The notes: generated from the sequence alone by a model not told the origin. A stretch of DNA of 64,000 nt from an uncultured Planctomycetales bacterium (GCA_964483785.1 CAZACW010000004.1:6794-70793), one strand, 5' to 3'; shown: positions 5,036 through 59,499, numbered from the stretch's first letter. Numbers and translations: made by a program.

Positions 5036-5039
5036 TTAT

Positions 5040-5270: not shown

Positions 5271-5334
5271 CCTCAATCCGGCCCGGCCGCGGCCCGCGGG
5301 GCCCTGGGACTGACAGAGCGGCAGCGACGGTTTT

Positions 5335-7532: not shown

Positions 7533-7574
7533 ATTTTCGTCCTCAATTTATCAAAAATCCACCAAAAAGCCATA

Positions 7575-10131: not shown

Positions 10132-10148
10132 GATAGCCTCCTTGGGGT

Positions 10149-11051: not shown

Positions 11052-11052
11052 A

Positions 11053-11867: not shown

Positions 11868-11890
11868 AGGGGTCCTTTCGTCAAAGCGGC

Positions 11891-13042: not shown

Positions 13043-13045
13043 AGT

Positions 13046-13381: not shown

Positions 13382-13391
13382 ACGGACTCCT

Positions 13392-33458: not shown

Positions 33459-35177
33459 TTATTTCTGGGCCTGCAGTTTTTTGACCTTGTCCTGCAAAGC
33501 ATCGACTTGGTTTTGTAACCCATTGACCTGCGCTTTTAGCTCCTTGATGGACTGCAGAAGGACTGCGGAGAATTTACCGTAATCAATGCCCAGATATTCC
33601 TGCCCGTTGATCTTGTTGGAGGCCACCAATTCCGGATAAACCTTCTGCAGTTCCTGGGCAAGCAAGCCGATGCTTTTTTGGCCTGGCTTAAGTCCTATGT
33701 TACGGGACAACTGGTTCCATTCAAAGGACACGCCATGCAATTGGTTGATTTTGGACAATGTATCCGGCAATGAAACTATGTTCTGTTTTAAACGCATGTC
33801 CGAAGCGCCGGTGACGGTGCCTGAGGCCCAAATATTGCCCGTAACGCTCATGTTACCCGTCTGGTTATAGCTGCCGTTAACGATTAAATTGCTGTTGAGA
33901 TTAAGGTTATTGAGAGTGTCAAATAAAGCTTGGCTGGCAGGGTTATTAGCGACACGAAAAACTATATCGTTTCCTGCCGGCCGGTTTAAATAAAGATGCT
34001 GGTCCGTAGGACTGCTCAAAATATTGTATTGGACGCATCCAGCCGAGGTGGCGGTCTGCCCCAGCGTCAAGCCCACATAATTAGGACCGCAGCCCGCGGT
34101 CCCGATTTGGGCCACGCCTGTTCCCTCGCCTTTGACAGAGAGCGTATTGATGGGAGATGCATAGTCAATGCCTAAATTGCCGCTGCCATTGACATAAAGG
34201 CTGTTGGCCGGAGCATTCCAGGCCACGCCAAACTGAGAAGTAGCGCTGCCCATATCAAAAAAACCGAAATTATAACTCGCATCATAACCCAACACCATCT
34301 GCCGGCACCCTGCCGGACAGGTTGCCCCGGAAGTCCTGCCTATGGACACCTGCCCATTGACTGCGGCGGGGGCATTAAATGCGCCGACCTGGAGCATGTA
34401 GGCAGGGGCAGTTGCCCCGATGCCGACATTGCCGTTGGTGTCGATGCGCATGCGTTCTGTGGGCGTTCCGCCGGGCGATGAGTTCGTACTGGGCGAGGTT
34501 GAAAATGTCAGAAACCCGCCCCATCCCCCGGAATCAACTCCGCTGATTTGGGCCATATTAAGGACATCATTATTGTTGGTAAAAAGAATGGAGCTTCCAT
34601 TGCCGCCATTTCCGTTCACAGAATTTAATCTAAGCAAGTTCCCTAAAGTGGCGTTGCCGGTATCATGGGTGATTTCCAACGAAGCTTGGGGTGTTGTATT
34701 ATTCCCAATGCCGACATTGTTTAAGTAGGTCCCGAAGACCAATTGGGCCGCAGGATTGGTGCCAATGACAAAGGGTGATCCCGCAGGACCATTCAGGTTA
34801 AATACCCTAAATCCCGCATCAGCGGCATCTCCGTCCCAATTTAAATAGACATTAAATATATTCCATTGGCCGGTCAAATCAAGGTTTCCCGTAGCACCGT
34901 CCATGAAAAACGTCCATGGGCTATCAAAATTATTTCCGATGGTCAATGGAGTCCCCCAAGTGGCCGTGGGTGATTCCAGAACAGATGAACCTAAAACATC
35001 CAGCACGTCCGTCCCGACAAAGGTGCCGATGCCGACATTATTGGAAGAAAGGTGATTGTAATTGCCGCTGGGGGCAGGGTAATACGTGGTGAGGGTGGTC
35101 GTTCCGGCATAGACCGCAAGAGCGCCAAGCATTAAAAAAGCCGCTGTGCTAAACAAAAGGCCAAGCTTTTTCATCAA
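33459..35177 (-). CDS. Secreted Gly/Asn/Thr-rich fibre protein with a C-terminal peptidase S74 (intramolecular chaperone auto-processing, tail-fibre/endosialidase-type) domain.
   Basis: The product has a signal peptide and a long G/N/T/S-rich beta-helix-like body. Its C-terminus, ...ASDMRLKQNIVSLPDTLSKINQLHGVSFEWN...IGLLAQELQKVYPELV..., matches the S74 chaperone domain (SD-RLK-NI motif) and ends in a coiled coil. Confidence 0.75.
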   Translation of the reverse strand: MMKKLGLLFSTAAFLMLGALAVYAGTTTLTTYYPAPSGNYNHLSSNNVGIGTFVGTDVLDVLGSSVLESPTATWGTPLTIGNNFDSPWTFFMDGATGNLDLTGQWNIFNVYLNWDGDAADAGFRVFNLNGPAGSPFVIGTNPAAQLVFGTYLNNVGIGNNTTPQASLEITHDTGNATLGNLLRLNSVNGNGGNGSSILFTNNNDVLNMAQISGVDSGGWGGFLTFSTSPSTNSSPGGTPTERMRIDTNGNVGIGATAPAYMLQVGAFNAPAAVNGQVSIGRTSGATCPAGCRQMVLGYDASYNFGFFDMGSATSQFGVAWNAPANSLYVNGSGNLGIDYASPINTLSVKGEGTGVAQIGTAGCGPNYVGLTLGQTATSAGCVQYNILSSPTDQHLYLNRPAGNDIVFRVANNPASQALFDTLNNLNLNSNLIVNGSYNQTGNMSVTGNIWASGTVTGASDMRLKQNIVSLPDTLSKINQLHGVSFEWNQLSRNIGLKPGQKSIGLLAQELQKVYPELVASNKINGQEYLGIDYGKFSAVLLQSIKELKAQVNGLQNQVDALQDKVKKLQAQK

Positions 35178-36357: not shown

Positions 36358-37265
36358 GCAGGCCCTTGCATTTTGAAAACAAAATGAGCGGGCTTCCCCA
36401 TGCCCATGGCCTGGGCCTGGCCAAGACTTCCAAGGGAAAATTTGTCATTAAATGTTATCCGGCTTATGCGGCCCAAAGAATCAGCTTGGAATACGCCATC
36501 AACCGCATCTTGACCCAACGCCGTTTCCCGACTCCGGCCATGCATGCGGGCCCGCCGCATCGTCCATTTTGCAGGATCAGCCACCAGCTCTTTTGCTGCT
36601 ACGATTTTATCGACGGTGACCATGCCTGGCAAAGCATCCAAAGCAGGGACACCTTCCGCCAGATCAATGGCAACTTGATCGGCATCAAAAACACCCTTGC
36701 TCCGCTTAAAGGACGCCTGCCTTTTTTAAGGCAGGAAAGCCTGGCGGCCAAGATCAAGGACCTGTCCCAAAAATCTAAAATCTTAAAAACCTATGACCAC
36801 AAAAATTTGATCGAAGGCCACTTGAAAAACATATGCCGCGCCTTTGAAAGTCAGCGCCGCGCCTTTGCCCGGCAATGGCTGCACAATTGCGCCACCCTGA
36901 CCAATTTTCTAAAATTCAAAAGCAAAATCTATGTGATTGATCTGGAACACGTACGTGAGGATTATGTTCTGGCGGACCTGGCCAGCCTTGTTTTGTCCTG
37001 CCTGTCGGTGGATGTCAAAAAAGATGTTCCGCTGTTCACCATCCAGGCCGTGATCAAAGACCATTATGCCCAGCTGCGGCCGTCTGAAGAAGACCTGGCC
37101 GTTGTTCGTGCCCTCTTTTTGCTTGGCCTGGTCAAGGAATATCTGCATTACATCCGGGCATGCCGATTGCCTGGTCCTGCTTCACAACAGTTGAGTTTAA
37201 AACAAGCCCGCGCCTTCCATCTTTTGGCTGACTCCAAAGCCCTGACGAAATTATGGCTGCCTTGA
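36318..37265 (+). CDS. APH-like kinase-fold protein, paralogous to the preceding gene.
   Basis: The 315-aa product is collinear with the previous product (FFDLGRP...KTSKGKFVIKCYP...RFPTPAMH...HNCATLTNF...VIDLEHVREDY). Confidence 0.65.
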   Translation: MEEIQQICRFFDLGRPLHFENKMSGLPHAHGLGLAKTSKGKFVIKCYPAYAAQRISLEYAINRILTQRRFPTPAMHAGPPHRPFCRISHQLFCCYDFIDGDHAWQSIQSRDTFRQINGNLIGIKNTLAPLKGRLPFLRQESLAAKIKDLSQKSKILKTYDHKNLIEGHLKNICRAFESQRRAFARQWLHNCATLTNFLKFKSKIYVIDLEHVREDYVLADLASLVLSCLSVDVKKDVPLFTIQAVIKDHYAQLRPSEEDLAVVRALFLLGLVKEYLHYIRACRLPGPASQQLSLKQARAFHLLADSKALTKLWLP

Positions 37266-38075
37266 TTGTTCTGACCAAATGCCCTGCACAATCCGGCGTA
37301 ATTTTTGATCATCAGAACATGAGTCATTGTCATCGGCCGTCGCCGCCGAAGGCTTGGCCCTGTGACCATACGTCTTGATCAAGAGTTTCCTTACGACGGC
37401 AGGGACCTGCAGTTCACGGGGCGCGCCGCGCAAAGGAAAAAATTGCCCTGCTGACAGGGAACGCAGCGATGATTTGCCTATTTTTAGTTCATCAGGCATG
37501 GAAAGGGAAAGGGCAATCATTTCCTTGGTTAAAAAGGGAAAGACAAATTCCAATCCGTGGGCCTGGGCCGCCTGATGATGGGCCTCTTCATCAAGCTTGG
37601 TCCTTGCCAGGCGCGCTTCAAGGCCTCCGGGATAAGGCTTTAACGCATCATCCCCAAACCATTGGTCCGCCCCCATGCCGGAGATGAACACATCCCCGGC
37701 GATTTTGCGATCATATTTTTTTAAAGCCGCGTACACCACCGCCAAATCAAGATCCAGCAAAGGTTCCAGCGTCATACGCGCGACGGTCTCAAAGGCAGAT
37801 AAAAATTCAGCGGTCTTGACATGAAGGATATGATGCTGCAGTCCCGCTTCCCTGGCTGTCAAGGAAGCGCCGGCCACGGTCAACGGGTTAAAATCTTCAA
37901 ATTGGACGGTCACAGCCGCAACCTTGGCCCCTTGCCGCCGGGCCAAGGAAGCCATCAACAGCGAATCAAAACCGCCGCTGAACATCACCGCCCTGGGCCG
38001 GCCTTTGATATCACCCAAGGCATGTTCAAGGGCCTGTTGGAGCTGATCAGAAACTTGTTCAATGGGCGCGGGCAT
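37251..38075 (-). CDS. PP-loop ATP pyrophosphatase (asparagine synthetase C-domain-like adenine nucleotide alpha-hydrolase).
   Basis: The 274-aa product has the SGGFDS PP-loop (AVMFSGGFDSLLMASL). It lacks the QueC-type Cys cluster. Confidence 0.6.
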   Translation of the reverse strand: MPAPIEQVSDQLQQALEHALGDIKGRPRAVMFSGGFDSLLMASLARRQGAKVAAVTVQFEDFNPLTVAGASLTAREAGLQHHILHVKTAEFLSAFETVARMTLEPLLDLDLAVVYAALKKYDRKIAGDVFISGMGADQWFGDDALKPYPGGLEARLARTKLDEEAHHQAAQAHGLEFVFPFLTKEMIALSLSMPDELKIGKSSLRSLSAGQFFPLRGAPRELQVPAVVRKLLIKTYGHRAKPSAATADDNDSCSDDQKLRRIVQGIWSEQSRQP

Positions 38076-38084
38076 GGGGGCAGA

Positions 38085-39062
38085 TCAGGCGTTTCTCACC
38101 CTTTGATAGGCTTCCATCTGCCCGGCGATCTCACGGTTTCGCCAGGCCACGCGGCAATTGATGCAGTGATGGTAAGTTCTAAAAGGTTCGCCGCCGTTTA
38201 AGGCCAACGCGCGGGCCTGTGTATAGCTTGCAGATTCCCAAACTGCCTTGAAGCCGGATTCATACGCGTTGCCGACCTTCACCGCCTGCATGAAACAGCA
38301 GACATTCACGTCCCCGTTGAATTTGATGGCGCTGTTAAACCAGCCGTGAAAACACGGGGGCCACTCGCCGCTGATCTCGGCTTTGTCCTGGTGCTGCTGC
38401 AGCTGTATGTGCCGGTTTTGCTCGCTCACTTCCAAGACCCTTTTTTGCACCACATTGGCGCCAATTTTACGGACCAGGTTTTCTGTTTTCAAAAGGTTCT
38501 GCGCGTTTAACCGCGTCATCACCAAAAGCACCTCAATGCAAAAATTCGGATTGTACAAGCTCCGCAGCCTGGCCAGTTCCCTGATATTTTTGATCACCTT
38601 GACAAAGAGGTCCTTGCCCATCAAGGCGCGGTAGGATTCCCGGTCCGCCTCTCCCATATTGATCACGATATGGTCGGCCCGTAAGATGTCGCGGCAGCGC
38701 TCGATGGGAAAGGTCCCGTTGGAAATCAGATTGATGGAAAAATCCGGCTCCAGATGCCGGAGCATATCATAAAACCGCGGGTGCAGGGTGGGCTCGCCCT
38801 GGCCGGAAAGGTAGATGGTATCCACCTGAAGCTCCTTGCATTCCAGGCTTAGCCTTTCAAATAATTCATAAGGCATGAAATTTTCGCCGCTTTTGACATG
38901 GGTGCTGCCCGGGCCGTGATAATAGCAGTACTGACAGGTCAGATTGCACAGCTCCGTGATATGAAACTGCACCATGGCAGGGCCGATCAGGGGACGGCCG
39001 GACTCGACGCCTTTTAACCGCAGCAATAATCTGCGCTTCTGCTCCCGATGGTTTAAGATCAC
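38085..39062 (-). CDS. Radical SAM protein with a SPASM/twitch-like Cys-rich C-terminus (rSAM #1).
   Basis: The product has CNLTCQYC (CxxxCxxC), a GQGEP motif and the C-terminal cysteines CFHGW...VNVCCFMQ...HCINCR. The start is set at GTG 39062, overlapping the upstream stop (GTGA), by homology to rSAM #2 (VILNHREQKRRLLLRLK). Confidence 0.75.
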   Translation of the reverse strand: MILNHREQKRRLLLRLKGVESGRPLIGPAMVQFHITELCNLTCQYCYYHGPGSTHVKSGENFMPYELFERLSLECKELQVDTIYLSGQGEPTLHPRFYDMLRHLEPDFSINLISNGTFPIERCRDILRADHIVINMGEADRESYRALMGKDLFVKVIKNIRELARLRSLYNPNFCIEVLLVMTRLNAQNLLKTENLVRKIGANVVQKRVLEVSEQNRHIQLQQHQDKAEISGEWPPCFHGWFNSAIKFNGDVNVCCFMQAVKVGNAYESGFKAVWESASYTQARALALNGGEPFRTYHHCINCRVAWRNREIAGQMEAYQRVRNA

Positions 39063-40054
39063 TTGACAGCCCCCAGAGCTGATCGTCTTAATCGTTGATA
39101 ATTCTGCAGATGCCCGGCAATCTCTTGGTTGCGGCCGGCCGCGCGGCAATTGATGCAGTCATGGTCTTTTCTGAAAGTCGGCCCGCCCAGCAGGGCACCG
39201 CTGCGGGCATCGGCATAGGCCTTGGACTCCCAGATTTCCTTAAACGGCTTCTCAAAGACATTGCCGATGGTCAAGCTTTGCATATAACAGCAGACATTGA
39301 CCCCGCCGTCCAATTTAATGGCGCTGTAAAACCAGCCGTGATAACAAGGCGGCCACTCGCCGTCAATTTCTGTATGCTCTGCTTGGCCTTTGAGCATAAG
39401 ATTACGGTTGTGCGATGCGGGCTCAAAGGTCTTTTTCTGCACCACATCAGCGCCGAGCCGCAGGACCAGGCGCTCGGTCCTTAATAGATGCTCATCATTG
39501 AGATTGGTCATGATAAAAACCACTTCAATCTTAAAGTCAGGATTGTACAGGGGCCGCAGTCTGGCCAGTTCCTTGATGTTCCTGATCACCCGTCCAAAAA
39601 GGTCCTTGCCCTGCAAGGCGCGGTAGCTGTCCCTGTCCGCGGCGCCTAAATTGATGATGATGCGGTCCGCCCGCAGCACATCGCGGCAGCGCTCCAAGGG
39701 AAAGGTGGCGTTGGTAAAAATCGTGACCGCAAAATCATGCTCCAGGCGTTTGAGCATGTCATAAAATCGGGGATGAAGGGACGGATCGCCTGTGCCGGAG
39801 AGATTGACCGTATCCACCTGCAAATCCGCGCAGTCCCGGGCCAATTGCTCAAAAAGCTCGAAAGACATATGGTTTTTTCCCGACGGGCGCAAGGGGCTTC
39901 CTGGGGAATAGTACCAACAGTACGGGCAGGCCAGATTGCAAAGGTCGGTGATCCTCAGATGCACCGTGGCCGGACCGATCAAGGCGCGCTGTTCTTCGAT
40001 GCTTTTCAGACGCAAAAGCAGCCTGCGTTTTTGTTCCCGGGGCTCAAGGATCAT
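39059..40054 (-). CDS. Radical SAM/SPASM-like protein (rSAM #2), paralogous to #1.
   Basis: The product begins MILEPREQKRRLLLRLKSIEE... and has CNLACPYC, SGTGDP and the C-terminal cysteines CYHGW...VNVCCYMQ...DCINCR. It is about 55% identical to #1. Confidence 0.8.
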   Translation of the reverse strand: MILEPREQKRRLLLRLKSIEEQRALIGPATVHLRITDLCNLACPYCWYYSPGSPLRPSGKNHMSFELFEQLARDCADLQVDTVNLSGTGDPSLHPRFYDMLKRLEHDFAVTIFTNATFPLERCRDVLRADRIIINLGAADRDSYRALQGKDLFGRVIRNIKELARLRPLYNPDFKIEVVFIMTNLNDEHLLRTERLVLRLGADVVQKKTFEPASHNRNLMLKGQAEHTEIDGEWPPCYHGWFYSAIKLDGGVNVCCYMQSLTIGNVFEKPFKEIWESKAYADARSGALLGGPTFRKDHDCINCRAAGRNQEIAGHLQNYQRLRRSALGAVK

Positions 40055-41202
40055 AAGGGGTCATGGGCGGCCAGCCGCAATTTTTCGTTTAATTTTTTGT
40101 TGATCGGCACATAACTGCAATGGCGGCATTCACGCCATTTGGATGAACAGGCATGGATCCCGGCAGATGCTTCGCGAAGCGTATCATGCAAAAAATCATT
40201 GTCGAACCAGATGTCCTTATACCGGCGCTCATTGACATTGCCGGCCACACAAACGCCCACCCCGTCGCAGGGGGCCACCACCTGGCCGTTCTCATCGATA
40301 TAGCTGTAAAACCAGCCCACCTGGCAGTTGACCTTCACTCCCGCGGTCGCATCATAGACAAGCAAGCGGTCATTGTTGGTTTTCGTAGGCGTCATGGTAT
40401 GGACATTGTCATTGTAATGGCCGTTGACGATAATGTTCTTTAAGTTTTCCAAATTATGGACAAAAGAATACCCTGCGCCCAGGGCCTCTTCCACCATGAC
40501 TTTTAATGCGCTCAAATGTTCCTCGGAAAAAACTAAATCCTTCATCTCTTCGGTGGCTTTAAAAAAACGGATGTAGACCTGGTCCACCCCCCTGTCCTGG
40601 GCCAAATCAAGAAAGGCCGGCATTTCCTTGTAGTTATGGTCATAAACAATGAAGGTCAAAACGATTTCCGGCTTGCCGTATTTACGGCGGGCAGCGAGGA
40701 GCCGGTCCAAATGCTTCAATAAATTCGCTAAAGAGCCGCTGGTCTTGCCGTGCACCCGGCGGTAGGAAATTTCATTCATGGCCGAGAGATTCACGATCAG
40801 GCGGTCCGCCAGGCAAAGATAACGCAGATGCTTGCCGTCAAAATCCAGGTGGCTGTAGGCCCGCAGGCGCATTCCCAATTCCTTGACCTTACGGAAGGCC
40901 TGCTCGGCAAAGGGGTAAAGGACGATTTCGCCCCCCTCCAGGTTGATCTCATTGACCCCGATCTCATGGCAATCTTCAAGGACGCCTTCCAGCACCTGAT
41001 AATCCAGCATCACGCGCTTCGGGGGGTTGGATATCAGCGGCGAAAAATACCAGCAGAACGCGCATTTGCGGTCGCAAGCCTGGATGGCATGGATATTGAC
41101 CGACTGCGGGCCGATGAGGGGCCTGCCCAGCAGGGCGCTTTTGGCCCTTAATTTGTCCTTCACGGCAGGAGACAATGATTTTAAGGATTCTGTATTGAGC
41201 AT
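40051..41202 (-). CDS. Radical SAM protein with a Cys-rich C-terminus (rSAM #3).
   Basis: The product has CDRKCAFC (CxxxCxxC) and the C-terminal cysteines CQVGW...APCDGVGVCVAG...HACSSKWRECRHC. Confidence 0.75.
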   Translation of the reverse strand: MLNTESLKSLSPAVKDKLRAKSALLGRPLIGPQSVNIHAIQACDRKCAFCWYFSPLISNPPKRVMLDYQVLEGVLEDCHEIGVNEINLEGGEIVLYPFAEQAFRKVKELGMRLRAYSHLDFDGKHLRYLCLADRLIVNLSAMNEISYRRVHGKTSGSLANLLKHLDRLLAARRKYGKPEIVLTFIVYDHNYKEMPAFLDLAQDRGVDQVYIRFFKATEEMKDLVFSEEHLSALKVMVEEALGAGYSFVHNLENLKNIIVNGHYNDNVHTMTPTKTNNDRLLVYDATAGVKVNCQVGWFYSYIDENGQVVAPCDGVGVCVAGNVNERRYKDIWFDNDFLHDTLREASAGIHACSSKWRECRHCSYVPINKKLNEKLRLAAHDPL

Positions 41203-41912
41203 GGTTGAGCAGTTTCCAATTGCGAAAACAATAAAGCGCGTAATTCCCGGCGTGCGGTCAAGGCCTTGAGCAGGTCCAAAAAATGGGTCAGTGCCCGCCG
41301 GTCTTGAACGGATTTAAAATCCGCGTGGTGTGTCAGCACGCCGGTGAGGATTTTAAGCTTGATGCTTTGGATCAGGGCTTTAAATACATCTTCAGCCTTG
41401 TACGTACTTGTTGTGCCAAGATCATAGCGGCTGAAGGACACCTGGGCCGGGAGATCTAAAAAATCTGCCTGTATCTTAGGCTTATGCGCCCCGGCTGAAA
41501 AATATTTGAACCCCTCTTCTTCTAAGATTGAAACCGTGTTTTGATCAAACCCGTGATAAGGCGGAACAAAGCCCGGCGTAAAATCTTCTCCAAAGGCCCG
41601 GTGCATCCTGCTTTTTCCTTCCCGGATATCTGCTTGCTGGTCCGTCCATGCCCGGGAGGCCCCGAACTCATATTTGCCCTGGCCCGGCGGGGCATGGTTT
41701 TTATGCAGCCAACCGTGCTGGACAATGTCGAGCAATTGGGGCGATTTTTGTTTGGCGTCCCGTAAAAATTTGACCAGGGCAGGTTCCATGGCCCCGGGGA
41801 TCACGGCCTGCACCACGGGAAGGCCGCGCTCAAAAGCCGCATCAAAAAAATAGCGGAAGGGCCCATCCAGGGTCCAGACATCATCGTTACGTATAAAAAC
41901 CCGTGCATTCAT
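41181..41912 (-). CDS. Polysaccharide deacetylase-like (CE4-like) protein.
   Basis: The product has CE4-like motifs: IRNDDV (motif 1), HGWLHKNH (motif 2) and FVPPYHGF (motif 3). It is 243 aa long. Confidence 0.5.
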   Translation of the reverse strand: MNARVFIRNDDVWTLDGPFRYFFDAAFERGLPVVQAVIPGAMEPALVKFLRDAKQKSPQLLDIVQHGWLHKNHAPPGQGKYEFGASRAWTDQQADIREGKSRMHRAFGEDFTPGFVPPYHGFDQNTVSILEEEGFKYFSAGAHKPKIQADFLDLPAQVSFSRYDLGTTSTYKAEDVFKALIQSIKLKILTGVLTHHADFKSVQDRRALTHFLDLLKALTARRELRALLFSQLETAQPCSIQNP

Positions 41913-41945
41913 GAGGCAAATCAGTATACTATTGTTTTACTTCCC

Positions 41946-43157
41946 ATGCGCGTCTTATTCCATTACACCCACAAGCAGACCCTCGGACATACGACAAGGT
42001 CCGTGGCGCTGGTCACGGCCCTCTGCCGCCATGGCGCCGAGGTCCTCGTCTTGCAGGGCGGGCTGCCCCAGCCTTTTGTCCAATTCCCTAAGAATGCCAA
42101 GGTGCTGGATCTTCCCCTGCCCTTTGACGGCCGGGGCAGTTTTCAGGCCCATGCCGCCCCTGTTTCAGCGGCGCAGCGCGCCCCATTTATCCTGAAAACA
42201 GCGGCAGATTTTAAGCCGGATGTCTTCATCACGGAATTTTTTCCATTCGGCCGGCTTTCTTATACGCCGGAATTGCTGCCGACCCTGCGCTTCCTGCGCA
42301 AAAAAGGCGTAAGGATTTTAGCCAGCATCGGATACCCGCTGTTGATTGACCTGGAGCGGTTTCAGGACCCCCGATTTTGCGCTTTGCACAAATCCATCTT
42401 TGCCTTCTTTGACACCTTCCTGATCCACACGCCGGACAAACTTGAAACAGCCTATATCCAAAAGACCATCCCTTCCGAGGCGCTGGCCAAACTGTATTTC
42501 AACCTGTTAAAAGAACTCGAACCAAGGACCAAGTACACCGGGTATGTCTATCCGCAACCCATGATCAGTGATACCGGCAAACCTCGGGCCGTTGCCAAGA
42601 ACAAAACCGTTGTCATCAGCCGCGGCGGCGGGGCCGTGTATCCGAAGCTCATCACTTTAAGCATCGAGGCGAAACGCTTACTGGCCCCTGACATTCATCT
42701 GATCATCGCCTGCGGTCCAGCCACAACAGCAAAAGAAATGGCCTTGTTCCAATCCTGCCTTAAGCCCAAAGACCAATCCAAAATATTTCTCACGCAAAGG
42801 ATCTCAGACCTGGATGATTATTTCAAAGACTGCCTGGCCTCGGTCAGCCTCTGCGGCTACAATACCTCGGTCCAATTGATGCGTCACGGCACACCCTCAG
42901 TCCTGGTCCCTTATCAAAACAATCTCTCCCGCGACAAGGTCTTAAAAACCAATACCAATGACCAGATTGCCCGCGCCCGTCTGCTCAAAGAACGCTTTTG
43001 CGGCCTCATCCTGGACTATGACCTGATGACCGCCTCTAATTTGGCTGAGGCCATTACCCAGCAAATCCACGCCCCCCGTCCTGCCCCTGCCCCCCAGGCC
43101 TGGTTTAACGGGGCTGATCTGACAGCACGCCTGGTGCTTGAAGGTAGTCCAAATTGA
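41946..43157 (+). CDS. GT-B fold glycosyltransferase (MurG/GT28-like C-domain), copy 1.
   Basis: The 403-aa product has N-terminal ...LGHTTRSVAL..., mid-region KPDVFITEFFPFG and a C-terminal VISRGGGAVYP...SVSLCGYNTSVQLM...PSVLVPY donor-binding region. Confidence 0.6.
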   Translation: MRVLFHYTHKQTLGHTTRSVALVTALCRHGAEVLVLQGGLPQPFVQFPKNAKVLDLPLPFDGRGSFQAHAAPVSAAQRAPFILKTAADFKPDVFITEFFPFGRLSYTPELLPTLRFLRKKGVRILASIGYPLLIDLERFQDPRFCALHKSIFAFFDTFLIHTPDKLETAYIQKTIPSEALAKLYFNLLKELEPRTKYTGYVYPQPMISDTGKPRAVAKNKTVVISRGGGAVYPKLITLSIEAKRLLAPDIHLIIACGPATTAKEMALFQSCLKPKDQSKIFLTQRISDLDDYFKDCLASVSLCGYNTSVQLMRHGTPSVLVPYQNNLSRDKVLKTNTNDQIARARLLKERFCGLILDYDLMTASNLAEAITQQIHAPRPAPAPQAWFNGADLTARLVLEGSPN

Positions 43158-44121
43158 ACTTTTTCAAAAAGCCGTGATACGCAAAACAGCCCGGACAATG
43201 GCCTTGGGCCGCCTCTTGAGATAATTTCCGCCGCACTTGATTTAAAGCTTGGGGCAATTCTCCGTTTGACCCTAACTGTCCTGCCGGCTCCATATAGAGG
43301 CACGGATAGACCTTGCGCCGGGAATTGATAAACAAGGACCGCGCCGGTGTGGCGCAGGCACGTATGCAGTCCCGCCCGCCTTCGAGCAAAATGAGCATGG
43401 CTTCGGTGAGCTTACGGTCAACGCCCGCATAACCCTCATCCAAGATTTGACTGATTTGCCGGCGGACAACTTCGATCATCGCGGGCGTCAGGGTCGACAA
43501 GGCGCCGGCCTGCGGCATCTCGTGGCGATGATAATAATCCGAAACGCCGGATTCCATGATCTTGGGGAAAAACCTGGCCTTATAACGGCGGGCCAGCTGA
43601 TAAACCTCATGGATCTCGGCAAAATTCATTTGATTGATGGTGAATTTGAAATCCAAGGTAATCTTTTGGCCATAATTGTCATGGAGCCATCCCATGGTCT
43701 TTAATGTCTTTTGATAAGCGCCTTCCCCCCGCAAGAGATCATGGGTCTTTGGCCCTCCGTCGATGCTGATGCCCATGTACATGCCTTTAAGATAAGGACC
43801 ATAGGCGGTGAACACCCGGCGCACCCCTTCAAAATAAGCGGCGTTGGAATAGACGCCGAATTCATCGATGTCGCCGCGCTCGCGCAGCAGCGCCAGGGAC
43901 TTTAACAATCGGCCGCAATTGCGGTTGAGAAACGGCTCCCCACCGGTGACAGACACGAATTTCAATTTAAATTCCTGGGTCAGGTTTCTGATCATGCGCA
44001 CCACCAGGGAAGCGGTCATCTCATGGCGTTCTTTCTCCGCCCAGATCCCGCAATGCTGGCAATGCAGCTGGCAATGATTGGTGATCTCGACCGTTATATC
44101 ATTAAGAACAGGCTTTTTCAT
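43105..44121 (-). CDS. Radical SAM protein (rSAM #4).
   Basis: The product has CQLHCQHC (CxxxCxxC) and TGGEPFL, with additional C-terminal cysteines (CIRACA..., CPGC). Confidence 0.75.
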   Translation of the reverse strand: MKKPVLNDITVEITNHCQLHCQHCGIWAEKERHEMTASLVVRMIRNLTQEFKLKFVSVTGGEPFLNRNCGRLLKSLALLRERGDIDEFGVYSNAAYFEGVRRVFTAYGPYLKGMYMGISIDGGPKTHDLLRGEGAYQKTLKTMGWLHDNYGQKITLDFKFTINQMNFAEIHEVYQLARRYKARFFPKIMESGVSDYYHRHEMPQAGALSTLTPAMIEVVRRQISQILDEGYAGVDRKLTEAMLILLEGGRDCIRACATPARSLFINSRRKVYPCLYMEPAGQLGSNGELPQALNQVRRKLSQEAAQGHCPGCFAYHGFLKKFNLDYLQAPGVLSDQPR

Positions 44122-45094
44122 TCTGCAGGGTTTCTTTCAAGTCTTCGGCCCGCTGGACATTCTCATCATAATAAGGGCAGGTCTTGCAGGCTGTGTGCAT
44201 TTTTTGGATTTGTCCGTATTTGCCCAAGAGCCGCATGTTCATCATTTGAGGCGAATGCCAAAGCCCTTTCAATGACCATCGGTCCTGATGCGTCAAACGC
44301 ATCTGCGGGATGCGGCAGCAGATGCTGGTATTTTCATCATCGGACTTGACCACCATCTCAAACCAGCCGTTCAGGCACTGGGGCGGTGTCTGATCGTCTT
44401 CGCCCATCTCCGGTGCCGGGCCTTGCGGCAAGGCAATGCTTTGATTGTGCGCATGCACGTTCATCTTCTTAAAGTAAACGGAATTGACCTTCCAGCGCGA
44501 GGCCAAATCCCGCATCATAGGCCTTTGTTTGATGTTTTTGGCGTTGACGATATAAACAATGTCGATGAGAAAGTCAGGCTTGACGGAATCTCTTAAAGAC
44601 ACCAAGCGCTCGATGTTGGCGATGACGCGATCAAAGAGGTCCTTGCCCTGGATTTCAAGATATTGCAGACGGTCCACTGCGCTTAAATCGACAACCACCT
44701 GATCGGCTTTGATCACATCCTGGCAGGCCTCCAGCGGGAAGGTGGCATTGGTGAAAAGCTTGACGAACAGCGGCTGGTCTTGCAAATACCGCATCATGCG
44801 GCCAAACTGCGGATGCAAGGACGGTTCTCCGGAACCTGTGATATGGACTTGGTCCACGTTTAGCTCAACACAGTCCTTGATGGTGCCGCTGAATTTTTCC
44901 CACGACAAATAATGGGCCTTGTCAAAATGGGCGGGATTGCCCGGCGCATGGGTCCAGCAGTATTGGCAGCTTAAATTGCAGGAATTATTGATATGAATGT
45001 CAACGATTTCCGGGCCGATGTAGACCTTCTTGTCGCGCACGCCGGCGATGCGTTTTTGATACCGCTGTTCCAATTGCAAGACATCTAAAATCAT
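44102..45094 (-). CDS. Radical SAM/SPASM-like protein (rSAM #5), paralogous to #1 and #2.
   Basis: The product has CNLSCQYC, TGSGEP and the C-terminal cysteines CLNGW...TSICCRIP...ACKTCPYY. Its N-terminal QKRIAGVRDK resembles the EQKRRLLLRLK of #1/#2. Confidence 0.75.
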   Translation of the reverse strand: MILDVLQLEQRYQKRIAGVRDKKVYIGPEIVDIHINNSCNLSCQYCWTHAPGNPAHFDKAHYLSWEKFSGTIKDCVELNVDQVHITGSGEPSLHPQFGRMMRYLQDQPLFVKLFTNATFPLEACQDVIKADQVVVDLSAVDRLQYLEIQGKDLFDRVIANIERLVSLRDSVKPDFLIDIVYIVNAKNIKQRPMMRDLASRWKVNSVYFKKMNVHAHNQSIALPQGPAPEMGEDDQTPPQCLNGWFEMVVKSDDENTSICCRIPQMRLTHQDRWSLKGLWHSPQMMNMRLLGKYGQIQKMHTACKTCPYYDENVQRAEDLKETLQNEKACS

Positions 45095-46038
45095 GGGGAC
45101 CTTCTTGAGAATAACCAGCTGCCGCTTTCCTGCATCTTCTTATACCATTGGCATTGTGCGCAGGGAATGTCCTTGCGCTCTGGTTTTTTGCCGCGCAGCA
45201 TGGCCCTGGCGTAATTCATTTTCTCATTATTAAGGATTCCCTTCAAATCATCCTCAAAGGCGTTGCCGTAATCAGCCCAATAATTGACGGAACATCCCAG
45301 GACCCTGCCGTCGGTGTTGATCTGGGGCTGCAGCCAAAGCTGGGAACAGATTTTTTCCGCCTGATAAATCCTGCCGTATTTGTCCTGGTATTCCCGGCGG
45401 TTGACAGCCCCTGTGCCGGACAGCCGCCTGATCAAGGCGGGATTTTTCAAGGGGGAGAATTCATCCCAGGACAGTTTCACAAAAAAATCCATGTCCAGCG
45501 CCCTGGCCATGCGCCTGGCCAGAGGAATTTCATGTTCATTGTGGCCGAAAGCAATGAACTGCCAACACAGTTTGGGAAAGATCGATTTGTACCTGGCCTT
45601 GTGCGCGTTGATGGTCTTGATGTGCGCCATGACCTGGTTAAAATCCCCGCCTTTCCGGTAAATCCCATAGGTGTCTTGGCTGGCGCCGTCGATGGAGCAG
45701 GTGATGCGGCCGAAGCGGTATTGGACCAGTCCTTCCAGCATGGCTTCACTGGCTGTATTAAGATTTGTCCCCGTGGCCGCGTTTAAGGCCACCTTCTTCT
45801 CATGCGCGTAAGCGGCGATGGCCAGAAGATCAGGATTTAAAAAAATCTCCCCCCAACTGCTTAATTCAATGCTCTTGACCCAGGGATTGGCATCGACAAA
45901 TCTTTTGAAATCCCTGAATTTCAAAAGCTCCGTCCCCAGTTCCCGGGCGATCTCTCCCTTGGCGGTCGGGCACGTGGGGCACTTCAACTGACATGCCGTT
46001 GATGCGTCGAGCCGCACGCTGACAGGGTTGATTCTCAT
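45091..46038 (-). CDS. Radical SAM protein (rSAM #6).
   Basis: The product has ACQLKCPTC (Cx3Cx2C) near the N-terminus and a C-terminal CAQCQWY motif. It is 315 aa long. Confidence 0.65.
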   Translation of the reverse strand: MRINPVSVRLDASTACQLKCPTCPTAKGEIARELGTELLKFRDFKRFVDANPWVKSIELSSWGEIFLNPDLLAIAAYAHEKKVALNAATGTNLNTASEAMLEGLVQYRFGRITCSIDGASQDTYGIYRKGGDFNQVMAHIKTINAHKARYKSIFPKLCWQFIAFGHNEHEIPLARRMARALDMDFFVKLSWDEFSPLKNPALIRRLSGTGAVNRREYQDKYGRIYQAEKICSQLWLQPQINTDGRVLGCSVNYWADYGNAFEDDLKGILNNEKMNYARAMLRGKKPERKDIPCAQCQWYKKMQESGSWLFSRRSP

Positions 46039-47180
46039 GCTTTTATCTCCGTCCTAAATTGCCGGCAGGCATCGGCAACGGTCCTGGCCTTGTCCAGACC
46101 CATGAACGAATGCAGGGGCAGATGAAGAGCGCTTTCGGCATACCAATCGCTCACCGGAAACTTCTTTTGACTTTTGCCCCGGAATATCGCCAATCGATGC
46201 AGCGGCACGTAAGGCCTTTGCACCATGATGCCTTGGTTTTCCAAAAACCGCATCAGCCCGTCCCTGTCCTGGGCGCAGACAACAAAATTCTGCGCTACGC
46301 TTTGTGTGTGTGCCGGGTCTTTAAAAATCGTAAGACCCTGGGTCCCGGTCAAATGTTCTTCATAATAGCTTTTAATCAGATGCCGCGATTTGATGATTTC
46401 CTTGAGGCGGGAAAATTTCACCCGCAAGGCGATCAGGTCCAGGAAGCCCATGGGAGCAAATCTCTGGCCCATGTTCAAAAGTTCCGCGTCACTGCGCCAG
46501 TCTTCCATCCAGCGCCTGATCCGCTCCTCCTGCTGTTTTGGACAAATGACCATGCCTCCCCCACCGCCGCAGGAAGACAAAGGCTTATAATAAGAGAAGG
46601 AGAACGCTGCCAGGTCTCCAAAGGCCCCAAGCTTGCGGCCTTGATAGGTCGAGCTTTCCGCCTGGCAGACATCCTCGATCAAAACTATTTTCCTTTTACG
46701 GCAAATCCCTTTGATCGTCTCTATGGCGCAGGCGCGGCCGAACATATGGGCCGCGATCACGGCCTTTGTTTTTTTGGTCACGGACCGCTCAAGAGCTTCA
46801 GGGTCCATCTGCAAATCATCGGCCTTGGCTTCCACAGGGACAGGTTTGGCCCCGGCATAAATCACGGCCAGGGCCACGGCCTGATAGGTCAAATTGGGCA
46901 CCAGGACTTCGTCCTTGGGCTTGACCCCCGCGGCCAGCAGGCACATTTTAAGCGCGTCGCTTCCGGAATTGACGGCCACGGCATGTGCAACGCCGATATA
47001 CTGCGCAAACGTATGTTCAAATTCCCGGACCAGGGTCTTGATTTCATTAAGACCCTTCAGGCTTTTAAGTACACGCTCCGTTTCAGCAGCATATTCACGG
47101 CAAAGCGCCTGCTCAACCAGGAGGCTCTCGTACCTTATCGCTGCCATGCGGCTGTCCCTAAAATCTTGCGGTCTATCCAT
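46035..47180 (-). CDS. DegT/DnrJ/EryC1/StrS-family PLP-dependent sugar aminotransferase.
   Basis: The 381-aa product is DegT-like along its full length (...AVNSGSDALKMCLLAAGVKPKDEVLVPNLTY...). The start may be the downstream ATG at 47147. Confidence 0.8.
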   Translation of the reverse strand: MDRPQDFRDSRMAAIRYESLLVEQALCREYAAETERVLKSLKGLNEIKTLVREFEHTFAQYIGVAHAVAVNSGSDALKMCLLAAGVKPKDEVLVPNLTYQAVALAVIYAGAKPVPVEAKADDLQMDPEALERSVTKKTKAVIAAHMFGRACAIETIKGICRKRKIVLIEDVCQAESSTYQGRKLGAFGDLAAFSFSYYKPLSSCGGGGGMVICPKQQEERIRRWMEDWRSDAELLNMGQRFAPMGFLDLIALRVKFSRLKEIIKSRHLIKSYYEEHLTGTQGLTIFKDPAHTQSVAQNFVVCAQDRDGLMRFLENQGIMVQRPYVPLHRLAIFRGKSQKKFPVSDWYAESALHLPLHSFMGLDKARTVADACRQFRTEIKA

Positions 47181-48166
47181 TCAATGCTTTCACAAAGATC
47201 GATATAATGTCTCACTCTGTCTTCGTATTTGCGGCCAGGCATGGTCTTGACCGCCTGCAGGGCGTTAAAATTGCTGATGCTGCGGTAGCTGCACTGGGGA
47301 TGCCGGGACAAATGTTCCTGCAAATCCCCAAAATACCGCCGGGCCGCAGGCAGCAAGGCCCCGGATGCATTTTTCGCGAAATCCATGAGATACAGCTCTT
47401 CCCGCACTTCTTCAGGAAAGGAAAGCAAAAGCCAATTGGCCAAAATTTTGCCGCTGGGAACAGAAAGCAAGTCCCAAGAACCCCTCGAGGGCTCGCTATA
47501 GCCGCGGCCGATCAGGCCTTGCAGGCTGTTCTTCAATTCCCAGGCACAGGCCTGGCGGTACTGATCCATAAAAATGCCTGAAGCTTCCTCGTCCCAAATC
47601 TCAAGAAAGGCCGGATGCACTTCAATGGACTTAAGCCCCATGGCAGCCAGGCATTTTAAATTATCCAACAATCTCATAACACTGGAAGGATGCACGGTCA
47701 TGGTGGCTGTCAAAGGGCCGCGGGCATTGAGCGCCAGGGACACGCCTTTGAGAATGTCCGCGTAATAATAAGGCCCGATCCCCGGACGGTTGCGCTGGGT
47801 GGTTTTTTCATCGCCGTCAATACCCACTTCCAAATTGACATCATGATGTAAAAAGAAATCCATCAGCTCTTCATTGAGCAGGGTCGCGTTGGTCTGTACG
47901 GAAATGTAACGGCTTAAATTGTCCCGGCGGATGCGGGTGATCATGGCCTGAAGCACGTCCTTGTCCATCAACGGCTCTCCGCCGGAGAAGACAAATTCAA
48001 GGGGCGATGCGGGGCGGATGTAATCCAAAATATTCTCAAACGTGTGAAGTGTGATCACCTGCCGCTGGCTGCGGTATTTATAAAAACAATAGCCGCAGCC
48101 TAAATTGCAGCGGTCCGTGAAAAAAAGCCAGACATGATTGATCTGATCGATCAAGGATTCGCTCAT
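47135..48166 (-). CDS. Radical SAM protein, anaerobic sulfatase-maturase-like (rSAM #7).
   Basis: The product has CNLGCGYC and SGGEPLM. It is 343 aa long. Confidence 0.75.
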   Translation of the reverse strand: MSESLIDQINHVWLFFTDRCNLGCGYCFYKYRSQRQVITLHTFENILDYIRPASPLEFVFSGGEPLMDKDVLQAMITRIRRDNLSRYISVQTNATLLNEELMDFFLHHDVNLEVGIDGDEKTTQRNRPGIGPYYYADILKGVSLALNARGPLTATMTVHPSSVMRLLDNLKCLAAMGLKSIEVHPAFLEIWDEEASGIFMDQYRQACAWELKNSLQGLIGRGYSEPSRGSWDLLSVPSGKILANWLLLSFPEEVREELYLMDFAKNASGALLPAARRYFGDLQEHLSRHPQCSYRSISNFNALQAVKTMPGRKYEDRVRHYIDLCESIEWIDRKILGTAAWQR

Positions 48167-48195
48167 AAATCAGCAGTGCGGCGTCTTAGACCTCT

Positions 48196-49290
48196 TTACC
48201 TTGGGAAATGATTGATGGTGCTCAAGGATGAAGAACGGCCATGATGGGACCCAAATTTTCCCAATCCCAATGTCAAGTGCGTGCGCGTCTGAAAACGCAT
48301 AATGTCATTGATCGCCCAGGTGTTCATGTAGGGCTCGCCCATCATGGCATTCATCAGATCAAAGCTGTGGCAGACATGTTCGCGGTAAGGCAATTTGGCA
48401 TGTTTTCGGTGCATTTTATCATACGCTTTCTGATAAAAACCAAGCACCTCGGGCCTAAATAATCCCGTGGCCGGGTCCCAGAGCGTAAACTCAATCCGCT
48501 TATGTTCCGGCAGGCAGAGAAAGGCGTCCCCCCCAAACAGATAATTCGGCGGATGAAGGCTTAAGTCCATCACGCCCGGACTGATCCACTGGATGTCTTC
48601 GTTGGCATACATCATCCGCCGCAGTTCAGGACGTTTGGCCATGCTGAGATAATTTTTCTTGAAGGACGCCACGGTTTCAGGGGTCCAGGGCATGAAGGCC
48701 GCAGGCGTGATGTCGACGTGCGGGATGCCCAATGCTCTTAAAATATCCAGACCCTGCTCCATATGCTCAATTTCATGCGGATGCACCGTCATGGATGATC
48801 CACAGCCGATGCCGGCCTTGAGGCAGGCCTTGATGGTGTCAGCCAGTTTTTGATAGGACGCGGGCTTAAGGCCGCAACGGTGCCGGGCCGTCTGCTCCTG
48901 GCCGCCGTCGATGCCAAACTCCAATGACACCTTCAAACGCGCCAGTTTTTCAATGTCCTCATCATTGATCAAAAGGCCATTGGTCTGGATATGCAGGGAA
49001 ATCCCGGGAAATCGAACGCTGGCCTCTTGCATGATCCTAAAAAGGTTCTCCTTGGCCAGAAAGGCCTCGCCGCCGCTGAAAATCAAGGTGGAGGGCACGG
49101 TTGCTTCCCGCTCAAAGAGCAAAAAAAGCTGCTCGACGGCATCCAAGGAAACTTCCCGCCCCATCATGTGGCGAAAAAAGCAGTAATCGCAATGAAGATT
49201 GCAGCGCTCGGTGACATAGATCCAGGTGGAATTGACCTTGAATTTTTTAAGCGCTTTTTCTGGTGTCGATAAAATATTTGATCTTGCCAT
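48196..49290 (-). CDS. Radical SAM protein (rSAM #8), paralogous to #7.
   Basis: The product has CNLHCDYC and SGGEAFL. The start is tentatively the ATG at 49290 (MARSNILS...), which overlaps the upstream gene by 44 nt; a non-ATG start is possible. Confidence 0.65.
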   Translation of the reverse strand: MARSNILSTPEKALKKFKVNSTWIYVTERCNLHCDYCFFRHMMGREVSLDAVEQLFLLFEREATVPSTLIFSGGEAFLAKENLFRIMQEASVRFPGISLHIQTNGLLINDEDIEKLARLKVSLEFGIDGGQEQTARHRCGLKPASYQKLADTIKACLKAGIGCGSSMTVHPHEIEHMEQGLDILRALGIPHVDITPAAFMPWTPETVASFKKNYLSMAKRPELRRMMYANEDIQWISPGVMDLSLHPPNYLFGGDAFLCLPEHKRIEFTLWDPATGLFRPEVLGFYQKAYDKMHRKHAKLPYREHVCHSFDLMNAMMGEPYMNTWAINDIMRFQTRTHLTLGLGKFGSHHGRSSSLSTINHFPR

Positions 49291-52895: not shown

Positions 52896-52901
52896 GGCTG
52901 A

Positions 52902-53873: not shown

Positions 53874-53985
53874 ATCCGCCCTCCGGGGCGCTCTTTGTCA
53901 TGAGCGTCAGCCATAAGGTCCCGGCGCCCAAAATCAGCACCCCTATGACCCAATAGAGCCAGTATCTTTTTATAAAATCGTTCAT
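53854..53985 (-). CDS. 44-aa single-TM micro-protein (MNDFIKRYWLYWVIGVLILGAGTLWLTLMTKSAPEGGFVYQIN).
   Basis: Manual translation shows the ATG overlaps the stop of the upstream SGNH gene (ATGA). The product has a W-rich N-region plus one TM helix. It is not in the ORF track because it is under 60 aa. Confidence 0.45.
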   Translation of the reverse strand: MNDFIKRYWLYWVIGVLILGAGTLWLTLMTKSAPEGGFVYQIN

Positions 53986-55996: not shown

Positions 55997-56021
55997 GAAC
56001 AGACGCCTTGCGCTTTGCCTT

Positions 56022-57395: not shown

Positions 57396-57460
57396 GGGCA
57401 AGCTCCAAGGCCCTGCAGAAATCATGTTCACAAATTTTTGATAATACATTACTATAAGGC

Positions 57461-59340: not shown

Positions 59341-59490
59341 AGCGTAAATGAACGGCGCGCTGGCTGAGCCCTGGGTCAAAACAATGATCAGCCCCATCAA
59401 GACCATGATCAAAACGATGGGCAGCAGCCATAACCGCTTTCTGACTGTTAAAAACTGCCAAAATTCTTTTAAAACACTTAATTTGGACAT
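59332..59490 (-). CDS. SxtK-like (DUF5989-type) 52-aa membrane micro-protein.
   Basis: Manual translation gives MSKLSVLKEFWQFLTVRKRLWLLPIVLIMVLMGLIIVLTQGSASAPFIYALF. This pattern is typical of the small proteins that follow NodU/CmcH carbamoyltransferases. It is not in the ORF track because it is under 60 aa. Confidence 0.6.
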   Translation of the reverse strand: MSKLSVLKEFWQFLTVRKRLWLLPIVLIMVLMGLIIVLTQGSASAPFIYALF

Positions 59491-59499
59491 TGATGGACC

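Follow-up and report, generated by a model that had tools for sequence, protein, structure and literature searches.

Putative twitch-type radical SAM paralogues of old tandem origin in a conserved gene cluster, and their possible role in carbohydrate modification

The radical S-adenosylmethionine (rSAM) enzymes characterised as modifying sugars, namely BtrN, DesII, BlsE, AprD4 and NeoN, stand singly or in pairs in antibiotic pathways. By contrast, the gene cluster analysed here belongs to a group of related loci in which sugar enzymes and five to ten rSAM genes have been kept side by side throughout Omnitrophota, a poorly known phylum of very small host-associated bacteria; no description of this cluster was found in the curated libraries or the literature searched. 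Our copy of it lies in a 64,000-nucleotide stretch of an uncultured Planctomycetales bacterium (GCA_964483785.1, CAZACW010000004.1:6794-70793), the whole of which is called the window in the following, and positions are counted from its first letter. We have focused mainly on three of the 11 rSAM genes of the window, rSAM#1, rSAM#2 and rSAM#5, for which a preliminary description had proposed a recent tandem duplication and a shared basic N-terminal docking segment. On balance we favour, if only slightly, the explanation that their products are intact twitch-type tailoring enzymes of a carbohydrate-type pathway, which arose by old tandem duplications and were retained in variable number. The existence of paralogues and the 4-nucleotide overlap between two of the genes are ordinary operon features; less ordinary is the presence of two uncurated sister families with an Arg-bearing helix in a phylum-wide, rSAM-rich cluster.

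A twitch domain is a shortened form of the SPASM domain with one auxiliary cluster, which is held by four Cys in BtrN and in MoaA by three Cys, one iron site being open (PMC9012708). BtrN, the 2-deoxy-scyllo-inosamine dehydrogenase of the butirosin pathway and prototype of the twitch enzymes, joins an rSAM core to a twitch domain with one four-Cys auxiliary [4Fe-4S] cluster (PMC9012708), as the window enzymes appear to do, and the likeness extends to the fold (TMt 0.65-0.71, TMq 0.48-0.50), to a DegT-family aminotransferase as partner and perhaps to the carbohydrate-like small molecule that BtrN uses as substrate. However, no sequence relationship to BtrN was detectable (phmmer against the PDB, E <= 0.01), and BtrN, with about 250 amino acids, has neither the N-terminal Arg helix nor the long C-terminal helix of the window enzymes. 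The best structural match is BlsE (PDB 7vob), the cytosylglucuronic acid decarboxylase of the blasticidin S pathway and an rSAM enzyme whose substrate is a sugar nucleoside (PMC3715490); it has the same size (about 327 amino acids), but the identity is 13-15% and the curated BlsE model TIGR04466 gave no hit on rSAM#1, #2 or #5. The SPASM maturases of ribosomally synthesised peptides with post-translational modifications (RiPPs), such as anSME, SuiB, PqqE, CteB, SkfB and EpeE, are similar in overall fold, in the Pfam SPASM match of rSAM#1 and #2 and in the first half-motif CX13GX4C, whereas they carry, SkfB and EpeE excepted, two auxiliary clusters bound through seven Cys and mostly rely on a RiPP recognition element (RRE) or on leader-peptide binding. 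MoaA and the tungsten-cofactor oxidoreductase rSAM maturase family TIGR04317, which are of twitch type with nucleotide or cofactor substrates, gave the best-scoring curated models over the rSAM core, but with 50-100 bits against cutoffs of 284-380; their genomic context is unrelated, and the three-Cys auxiliary cluster of MoaA is a further difference.

When the 11 rSAM genes of the window were compared all-versus-all by BLASTP, the paralogy proved to be real and nested. rSAM#1 (38085-39062, minus strand, 325 amino acids) and rSAM#2 (39059-40054, minus, 331 amino acids) are the downstream and the upstream copy of a tandem pair and share 60% identity over 325 amino acids (E 3e-156). rSAM#5 (44102-45094, minus, 330 amino acids), which stands upstream of an opposite-strand glycosyltransferase gene, belongs to a sister family and is 33% identical to rSAM#1 (E 3e-60) and 35% to rSAM#2 (E 7e-67); these values are far beyond chance and bear out the relationship suggested earlier for the three genes. 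A fourth, more distant paralogue, missing from that set, is rSAM#3 (40051-41202, minus, 383 amino acids), with 25-28% identity to the three (E 1e-16 to 1e-22) and with the core of their N-terminal motif (LRAKSALLGRPLIGP); its stop overlaps the start of rSAM#2 as ATGA. Still more distant is rSAM#6 (45091-46038, minus, 315 amino acids), a twitch-type relative lacking the N-terminal helix and flanked by ATGA junctions on both sides, with 22-24% identity to rSAM#1 and #2 (E 1e-7 to 1e-14) and 22% to rSAM#5 (E 1e-2). We are highly confident of the resulting order, ((#1,#2),#5), then #3, then #6. A second pair of paralogues is made up of rSAM#7 and rSAM#8 (28%, E 6e-34); nearly all remaining pairs had no meaningful similarity, most of them with E > 1e-5.

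The age of the tandem pair could be judged from its relatives. A search with rSAM#2 recovered about 70 clusters at 48-71% identity, and one with rSAM#5 retrieved some 85 clusters (48-67%) that make up a family of their own; the few members of either that bear a name are 'Candidatus Omnitrophota/Omnitrophica' proteins from metagenome-assembled genomes, and the close locus L001 is labelled Planctomycetales. A genome scan yielded L001 as the one close locus, the others standing at about 25% identity, and when metagenomes were scanned with the family alignment, most hits were unrelated rSAM genes, L061 and L062 alone being close. Exact look-ups with the rSAM#2 protein yielded no recorded contig. 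In a neighbour-joining tree with 100 bootstraps rSAM#1 formed a clade with the proteins P0035, P0046 and P0048 (100% support), to which P0027 was added with 84%, rSAM#2 was grouped with P0003 and P0004 (82%), and the two genes came out as sisters in 0 of 100 bootstraps. rSAM#1 is 70% identical to its downstream-copy orthologues in other metagenomes as against 60% to rSAM#2, and orthologues at 70-71% identity exist elsewhere for each of the two. The three relatives of rSAM#1 whose contexts were checked (P0027, P0035, P0048) are each the downstream tandem copy and adjoin an AsnS-like gene. Since downstream-copy orthologues sit in tandem pairs elsewhere, the pair predates the split of at least four lineages. 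These alignments argue with high confidence for an old duplication, with rSAM#1 and rSAM#2 as members of different orthologous clades, and the idea of a recent event could not be upheld.

Copy number differs among the loci from zero to five. A single gene of the rSAM#1/#2 type is present in L001, L054-56, L141 and L142, whereas L059 has none and carries five tandem genes of the rSAM#5 type instead (L059 962-5972); the two sister families in the cluster expand and contract via tandem duplication. The downstream-copy clade and the remainder of its family differ by fixed residues at about six positions, one of them being Y243N beside the CxHGWF block of the twitch domain.

Residues invariant in the families are all retained in rSAM#1, #2 and #5. 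The Pfam Radical_SAM model (PF04055) scored 48.7-55.7 bits on the three proteins against a cutoff of 29.5 (50 for rSAM#1, 56 for rSAM#2). The CX3CX2C motifs read CNLTCQYC, CNLACPYC and CNLSCQYC, and C39, C43 and C46 are invariant in both families, as are, or nearly so, G89 and P91 of the SAM-binding block (SGQGEP, SGTGDP, GSGEP). A further core Cys, C123/124, is at least 90-98% conserved within E-R-C-R-D. The SG(T/Q)G(D/E)P block corresponds to the glycine-rich SAM-binding ('GGE') motif after strand beta-2, which is generic to radical SAM enzymes. It should be emphasized that the blocks formerly listed as common to the three genes are indeed present, but that this one and the C-x-GW...CC...CxxC pattern are generic, and the N-terminal helix alone is family-specific.

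The C-terminal part contains four invariant Cys in the family alignments (C237, C255, C300 and C303 in rSAM#2 numbering), arranged as CX13GX4C ... CX2C, while the second Cys of the 'CC' pair is poorly kept (C254 below 90% in the rSAM#1/#2 family, its equivalent at 67% in the rSAM#5 family). The seven-Cys SPASM motif CX9-15GX4C ... CX2CX5CX3C ... C was not found, nothing following the CX2C. Because four conserved Cys suffice for one cluster, a twitch domain is indicated rather than a full SPASM domain, and the pattern fits ligands for one fully ligated auxiliary [4Fe-4S] cluster in each of the three enzymes. The Pfam SPASM model (PF13186) nevertheless matched rSAM#1 with 41.2 and rSAM#2 with 44.5 bits (cutoff 21.5); a match was not reported in the Pfam scan of rSAM#5, although a precomputed PF13186 hit is on record for many proteins of its family. 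As part of the explanation which we slightly favour, the three would be catalytically intact members of two sister families of small enzymes of about 325 amino acids.

The AlphaFold2 models of rSAM#2 and rSAM#5 (mean predicted local distance difference test score, pLDDT, 93 each) have an identical order of secondary-structure elements. In Foldseek searches against the PDB BlsE came first for both (TM 0.63-0.67, E 1e-12 to 1e-13), followed by SuiB, MoaA, DesII, SkfB, anSME, BtrN, EpeE and viperin, and with phmmer MoaA was the sole PDB match within the same threshold as above (E 4e-3). The predicted fold is a generic SPASM/twitch rSAM fold without a close solved relative. None of the curated NCBIfam rSAM models (TIGR04317, MoaA, viperin, WgkB, ScmE/F, MftC and others) came near its cutoff, the best being TIGR04317 with 73.6-101 bits against 380.

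The segment in front of the rSAM core comprises codons 1-29 of rSAM#1 (38976-39062, minus strand) and the equivalent parts of rSAM#2 (39968-40054, minus) and rSAM#5 (45008-45094, minus). Residues 5-21, with Arg11 and Arg15, are predicted to form a helix (pLDDT 83-98 in the models of rSAM#2 and #5), after which LIGP leads to strand beta-1. In the rSAM#1/#2 family E7, R10, R11, L14, L16 and K17 are conserved to at least 90%, and R15, G27 and P28 are invariant; in the rSAM#5 family, where the segment reads M-I-I-D-x-x-E-L-K-R-R-Y-L-Q-R-I-A-G, R11 (98%), R15 (100%), G18 (98%) and the G27-P28 pair are kept, and rSAM#5 matches KRRLLLRLK loosely, with R11, R15, G18, G27 and P28 as the only residues retained. 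When 1.84 billion representatives were searched with a profile, 629 proteins passed a threshold of E <= 1e-30. Among the single-domain superfamily representatives inspected, 92 of 98 have a GP dipeptide 8-12 residues before the CX3CX2C motif, and in most sequences inspected, proteins of the rSAM#3 type with 355-385 amino acids included, [LF]R[LI]xG-x7 precedes this GP. Since the GP is kept so widely, also in the rSAM#3 type, the leader core (LRxxG...GP) is a superfamily hallmark, and according to the alignments the extra E-x-KRR turn is the sole part specific to the 325-residue subfamilies. The basic segment formerly ascribed to the three genes is therefore present in all of them, although loosely in rSAM#5, but its core is common to some 630 clusters at 50% identity and to rSAM#3; as such the LRxxG...GP motif may be used as a signature of the superfamily. 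The helix has a mean hydrophobicity of -0.4 to -0.6 and a hydrophobic moment of 0.25-0.35, with R11 and R15 side by side at the edge of its hydrophobic face. A role as membrane anchor was judged unlikely, the helix being hydrophilic overall and weakly amphipathic. The models rather suggest a fixed structural helix, the arginines of which may contact something common to all paralogues, either an anionic substrate or carrier group or an acidic electron donor.

This segment belongs to rSAM#1 if translation begins at the GTG at 39062-39060, as had been assumed before, and several observations argue for this start with high confidence. At the junction '...GTC AAG TGA' closes rSAM#2 and 'GTG ATC TTA AAC' opens rSAM#1, so that the GTG lies over the TGA (39061-39059) in a GTGA overlap (39059-39062, minus strand), with a GGGGG tract 8-12 nucleotides upstream of the GTG. 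Read from there, the N-terminus of rSAM#1 is (M)ILNHREQKRRLLLRLK, the counterpart in rSAM#2 being MILEPREQKRRLLLRLK, and M/V-x-L-D-x-x-E-x-KRR-x-LRLKG is the N-terminus of all 60-odd full-length relatives. In every related locus examined the homologous gene starts with ATG or GTG as ATGA or GTGA over the stop of the upstream gene, except for the downstream gene of the L060 pair; a G-rich tract stands 6-9 nucleotides upstream of the start, and the frame is closed 9-11 codons upstream of it. The only in-frame starts upstream of Met30 in rSAM#1 are TTG 39149, GTG 39062 and TTG 39026. The first of these, which gives a longer mechanical open reading frame, was rejected because of its 91-nucleotide overlap with rSAM#2 and the closed frame of the relatives. 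Furthermore, codons 1-29 of rSAM#1 differ from those of three orthologues at 15-17 synonymous and only 4-7 nonsynonymous codons, and since synonymous differences far exceed the others, this stretch is evidently translated and subject to purifying selection. On the source contig of 79,931 bp NCBI annotates rSAM#1 with 296 amino acids from an internal ATG; this call would cut off the conserved helix and is for this reason probably wrong, with the public start lying 29 codons too late; the exact 325-residue product was called independently on a Logan contig. The GTG takes the place of the ATG of the orthologues.

The overlap itself is the normal junction type of this operon and nothing special. 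ATGA or GTGA occurs at four junctions of the array, and in other genomes the rSAM3 gene is joined to a single-copy gene of the rSAM#1/#2 type by the same junction. Where the pair is present, the 4-nucleotide overlap and the G-rich tract are kept in five of six loci, L060 with its 26-nucleotide gap being the exception. Translational coupling, as proposed before, is plausible on these grounds, but the overlap is common in the cluster and in single-copy loci and not peculiar to the pair.

The genes belong to a tightly packed minus-strand array spanning 37.2-57.5 kb. Its shared core among related loci is rSAM8-rSAM7-DegT-(rSAM6)-(rSAM5 x0-5)-rSAM4-GT28 (opposite strand)-DUF2334-(rSAM3)-(rSAM1/2 x0-2)-AsnS-like. 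The AsnS-like PP-loop ATPase gene (37251-38075, minus), which is devoid of a glutaminase domain, lies directly downstream in every locus with a gene of the rSAM#1/#2 type and closes the DUF2334-rSAM3-rSAM2-rSAM1-AsnS unit, the first gene of which encodes the deacetylase-like DUF2334 protein (41181-41912, minus). rSAM#5 is located in another transcription unit, separated from that of rSAM#1 and #2 by the GT28-type gene (MurG/PseG-like GT-B; 41946-43157, plus), whose opposite-strand placement is kept in all related loci. Conserved core members are also rSAM#4 (43105-44121, minus), not a close paralogue of the three, the rSAM#7 and #8 genes (47135-49428, minus), which are found in all related loci, and a DegT/DnrJ/EryC1-type sugar or cyclitol aminotransferase (46035-47180, minus; Pfam 256 bits). 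The nearest solved relatives of the latter are QdtB, a transaminase (2oga), Gln:scyllo-inositol transaminase, perosamine synthetase and WbpE. Both rSAM#7 and rSAM#8 are without the C-terminal SPASM Cys, PapB-type models score best on them, far below cutoff, and the start of rSAM#8 is ambiguous (49428 or 49290). Searches of PDB sequences with GT28, DUF2334, rSAM#4 and rSAM#7 gave nothing informative.

Around this core the loci differ. Two APH-family kinases are usually found near the cluster in related loci. The window has in addition a PaaK-like adenylating enzyme, two successive MBOAT+GDSL/SGNH modules (51534-57479, minus), which we take to resemble, by family, the AlgI/AlgJ- or DltB/DltD-type O-acylation systems, and a NodU/CmcH-type carbamoyltransferase followed by two small hydrophobic open reading frames of 89 and 52 amino acids (59332-61520, minus); the regions of these modules and of the carbamoyltransferase were not seen in the related loci examined and represent lineage-specific decorations. 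The relatives have extras of their own, namely an ArnT-like PMT_2 protein, GT2, UDP-glucose dehydrogenase, NAD-dependent epimerase/dehydratases, YdjC, and sulfotransferases with APS kinase. In distant members of the superfamily the modules are fused into rSAM polyproteins of three to four modules, such as P0160 (1444 amino acids), the gene of which adjoins NPCBM, sulfatase and GT1 genes as well as another tri-rSAM fusion; the CBM_6 score of an inter-module segment of P0160, 28.1 bits, falls short of the cutoff of 28.9 and is no more than a hint. Locus L146 encodes two polyproteins (3712-8046 and 10122-14171) with three rSAM modules each, one of them with a B12-binding domain, beside NPCBM, sulfatase and GT1 genes; like the five tandem genes of L059, they represent an extreme expansion of this type of enzyme.

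The genomic company of the enzymes, consisting in the window cluster of the DegT aminotransferase with its relatives, GT28, DUF2334, MBOAT/GDSL and the carbamoyltransferase, points to carbohydrates, and we regard a carbohydrate-type substrate as an even chance. The genes themselves go back to old tandem duplications within the conserved cluster, rSAM#1 stemming from the downstream-copy lineage. In the proposed scheme one carbohydrate-type intermediate, be it a nucleotide- or lipid-linked sugar or a cyclitol, would lose a hydrogen atom to each paralogue at another position or residue, and electrons would pass to the fully ligated auxiliary cluster as their sink, as in BtrN. The product might be a ketone that the DegT enzyme could transaminate, or an epimerised or otherwise edited sugar, and the number of paralogues would set the extent of product editing, while the Arg-bearing helix may be a fixed part of the fold touching an anionic substrate handle or an acidic electron donor. 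Sequential action on one substrate is compatible with the copy-number variation and with the fused multi-module relatives. By analogy, a BtrN-like two-electron oxidation would be the most economical chemistry; it would explain the keto substrate of DegT without an enzyme of the short-chain dehydrogenase/reductase (SDR) type, and no SDR-type dehydratase or dehydrogenase able to provide a keto sugar was found in the conserved core. The conserved C123 leaves room for an epimerase-type mechanism, and our confidence in either specific chemistry, dehydrogenase or epimerase, is low.

Several points weigh against this proposal. No member of the families or of the cluster has been characterised, and all curated NCBIfam models stay far below cutoff. 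The fold matches (TM 0.5-0.67, 12-18% identity) embrace sugar- and peptide-modifying rSAM enzymes alike, SuiB, SkfB, anSME and EpeE standing beside BlsE, DesII, BtrN and MoaA. Dehydrogenase or epimerase chemistry is proposed by analogy only, and the carbohydrate-binding match comes from a distant relative and falls just below the Pfam threshold. Moreover, a single DegT faces many rSAM genes, so that simple delivery to the transaminase cannot be the task of most paralogues.

Other explanations have to be considered with respect to the substrate. SPASM/twitch rSAM enzymes are most often RiPP maturases (PMC9012708), and the target of the three proteins, for crosslinking or for the epimerisation of residues, could be a ribosomal peptide or a secreted protein, for instance a pilin or the S74-domain protein described below. 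SuiB, SkfB, anSME, CteB and EpeE are found among the fold matches, PapB-type models are the best-scoring ones for rSAM#7 and #8, and type IV pilus genes lie beside the cluster in L057 and L142, an A24-like peptidase being encoded in the window at 57461-58375. We nevertheless hold this to be improbable: the enzymes have no RRE/PqqD domain, only 28 residues (one helix) preceding strand beta-1, and a PqqD-like gene or domain was present in none of the cluster proteins scanned; no intergenic gap exceeds 108 nucleotides in 35.3-59.3 kb, and the largest core gaps (108 and 63 nucleotides) leave no room for a precursor gene there, although one located farther away would be conceivable; the small reading frames at 59332-59769 are hydrophobic and resemble membrane proteins rather than precursor peptides; all RiPP maturase models score far below cutoff; and the conserved partner genes are those of sugar enzymes. 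It is somewhat less improbable, though still rather doubtful, that the cluster makes a diffusible aminoglycoside- or aminocyclitol-like metabolite instead of an envelope glycan, with the rSAM enzymes performing BtrN-, NeoN- or AprD4-like tailoring. The four-Cys auxiliary site is that of BtrN, DegT is near to the Gln:scyllo-inositol and 2-deoxy-scyllo-inosose aminotransferases, two APH-family kinases are conserved beside the cluster, and the NodU/CmcH-type carbamoyltransferase, the GT-B transferase and the deacetylase-like protein would suit such a product. Yet 2-deoxy-scyllo-inosose synthase and inositol-phosphate synthase were not seen in the window cluster or the related loci, the ArnT-like PMT_2, GT2, UDP-glucose dehydrogenase and MBOAT/GDSL proteins are typical of envelope glycoconjugates, and conservation across many lineages of one phylum resembles that of a housekeeping surface structure.

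Two further alternatives concern the relation between the paralogues. The adjacency of the genes with their 4-nucleotide overlap and the N-terminal motif common to them could be taken, as in the preliminary description, for recent duplication combined with a special basic peptide docking the enzymes to one another, but we give this very little credence. Its recency is refuted by the identities and by the tree discussed above, and at least four other loci have kept the downstream-copy clade; the motif core recurs in the 92 of 98 representatives, proteins from one-copy loci included, and in the models the segment forms a fixed helix (pLDDT up to 98). Alternatively, rSAM#1 and #2 could be redundant and catalyse the same reaction at the same position, for gene dosage or as backup. 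Only about six positions distinguish the downstream-copy clade, and one copy is enough in many genomes; on the other hand both copies remain intact in several diverged lineages despite 40% sequence divergence, and one clade-specific change, Y243N, adjoins the conserved CxHGWF block of the twitch domain, so that redundancy seems quite unlikely to us. Carbohydrate tailoring by old, differently specialised paralogues stays the explanation to which we lean.

A bolder extension of carbohydrate tailoring may be formulated, which we put forward as speculation and consider unlikely on the whole. The cluster could represent an anaerobic line of radical glycan editing, where up to ten rSAM enzymes replace NAD-dependent sugar dehydrogenases, epimerases and dehydratases, each twitch paralogue editing one C-H of a surface glycan or pseudo-oligosaccharide, and where the Arg11/Arg15 helix holds a shared anionic carrier, be it a nucleotide diphosphate or a polyprenyl diphosphate. 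Gain, loss and fusion of paralogues, from zero to five copies and up to polyproteins of 3-4 modules, would then generate surface-glycan diversity in Omnitrophota. If these enzymes do edit a glycan, radical chemistry would operate in envelope biosynthesis on a new scale, and new enzymes for C-H functionalisation could be drawn from the cluster.

Some minor features of the locus were also recorded. In the 33-nucleotide divergent spacer (41913-41945) between GT28 (plus) and DUF2334 (minus) the palindrome AGTATACT stands within AAAATAGTATACT. TATACT can be read on either strand, and L142, L054, L057 and L141 retain the palindrome, L059 and L060 having variants of it, in contrast to the diverging spacer around it; its role could be that of an operator or of a -10-like element used in both directions, which would give very short leaders. 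A sigma-70 promoter scan remained at chance level (7 sites against 6.5 expected). At the other end of the glycosyltransferase gene the convergent 3' ends of rSAM#4 (minus) and GT28 (plus) overlap by 53 nucleotides (43105-43157), and overlaps of 26-53 nucleotides are found at the same place in L054, L057 and L142, which could cause antisense or transcriptional interference between the units.

Just beyond two APH-like kinase genes lies a gene (33459-35177, minus) for a protein of 572 amino acids with an N-terminus resembling, by eye, a signal peptide, a Gly/Asn/Thr-rich body and a C-terminal Peptidase_S74 domain (endosialidase/tail-fibre chaperone). The type IV pilus genes mentioned above (pilM, pilO, secretin) flank the cluster at 19941-20978 in L057 and at 18094-20978 in L142, and the A24 prepilin-peptidase-like gene stands at the upstream end of the cluster in the window; the proximity of such genes could be a coincidence or a hint of pilin glycosylation. 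The G+C content is 0.55-0.59 in the housekeeping flank of the window and 0.49-0.54 across the cluster, and two gene fusions were noticed in this flank, PurS-PurL (FGAM synthase; 24197-27130, minus) and Sua5/YrdC-low-molecular-weight phosphotyrosine phosphatase (19088-20155, minus).

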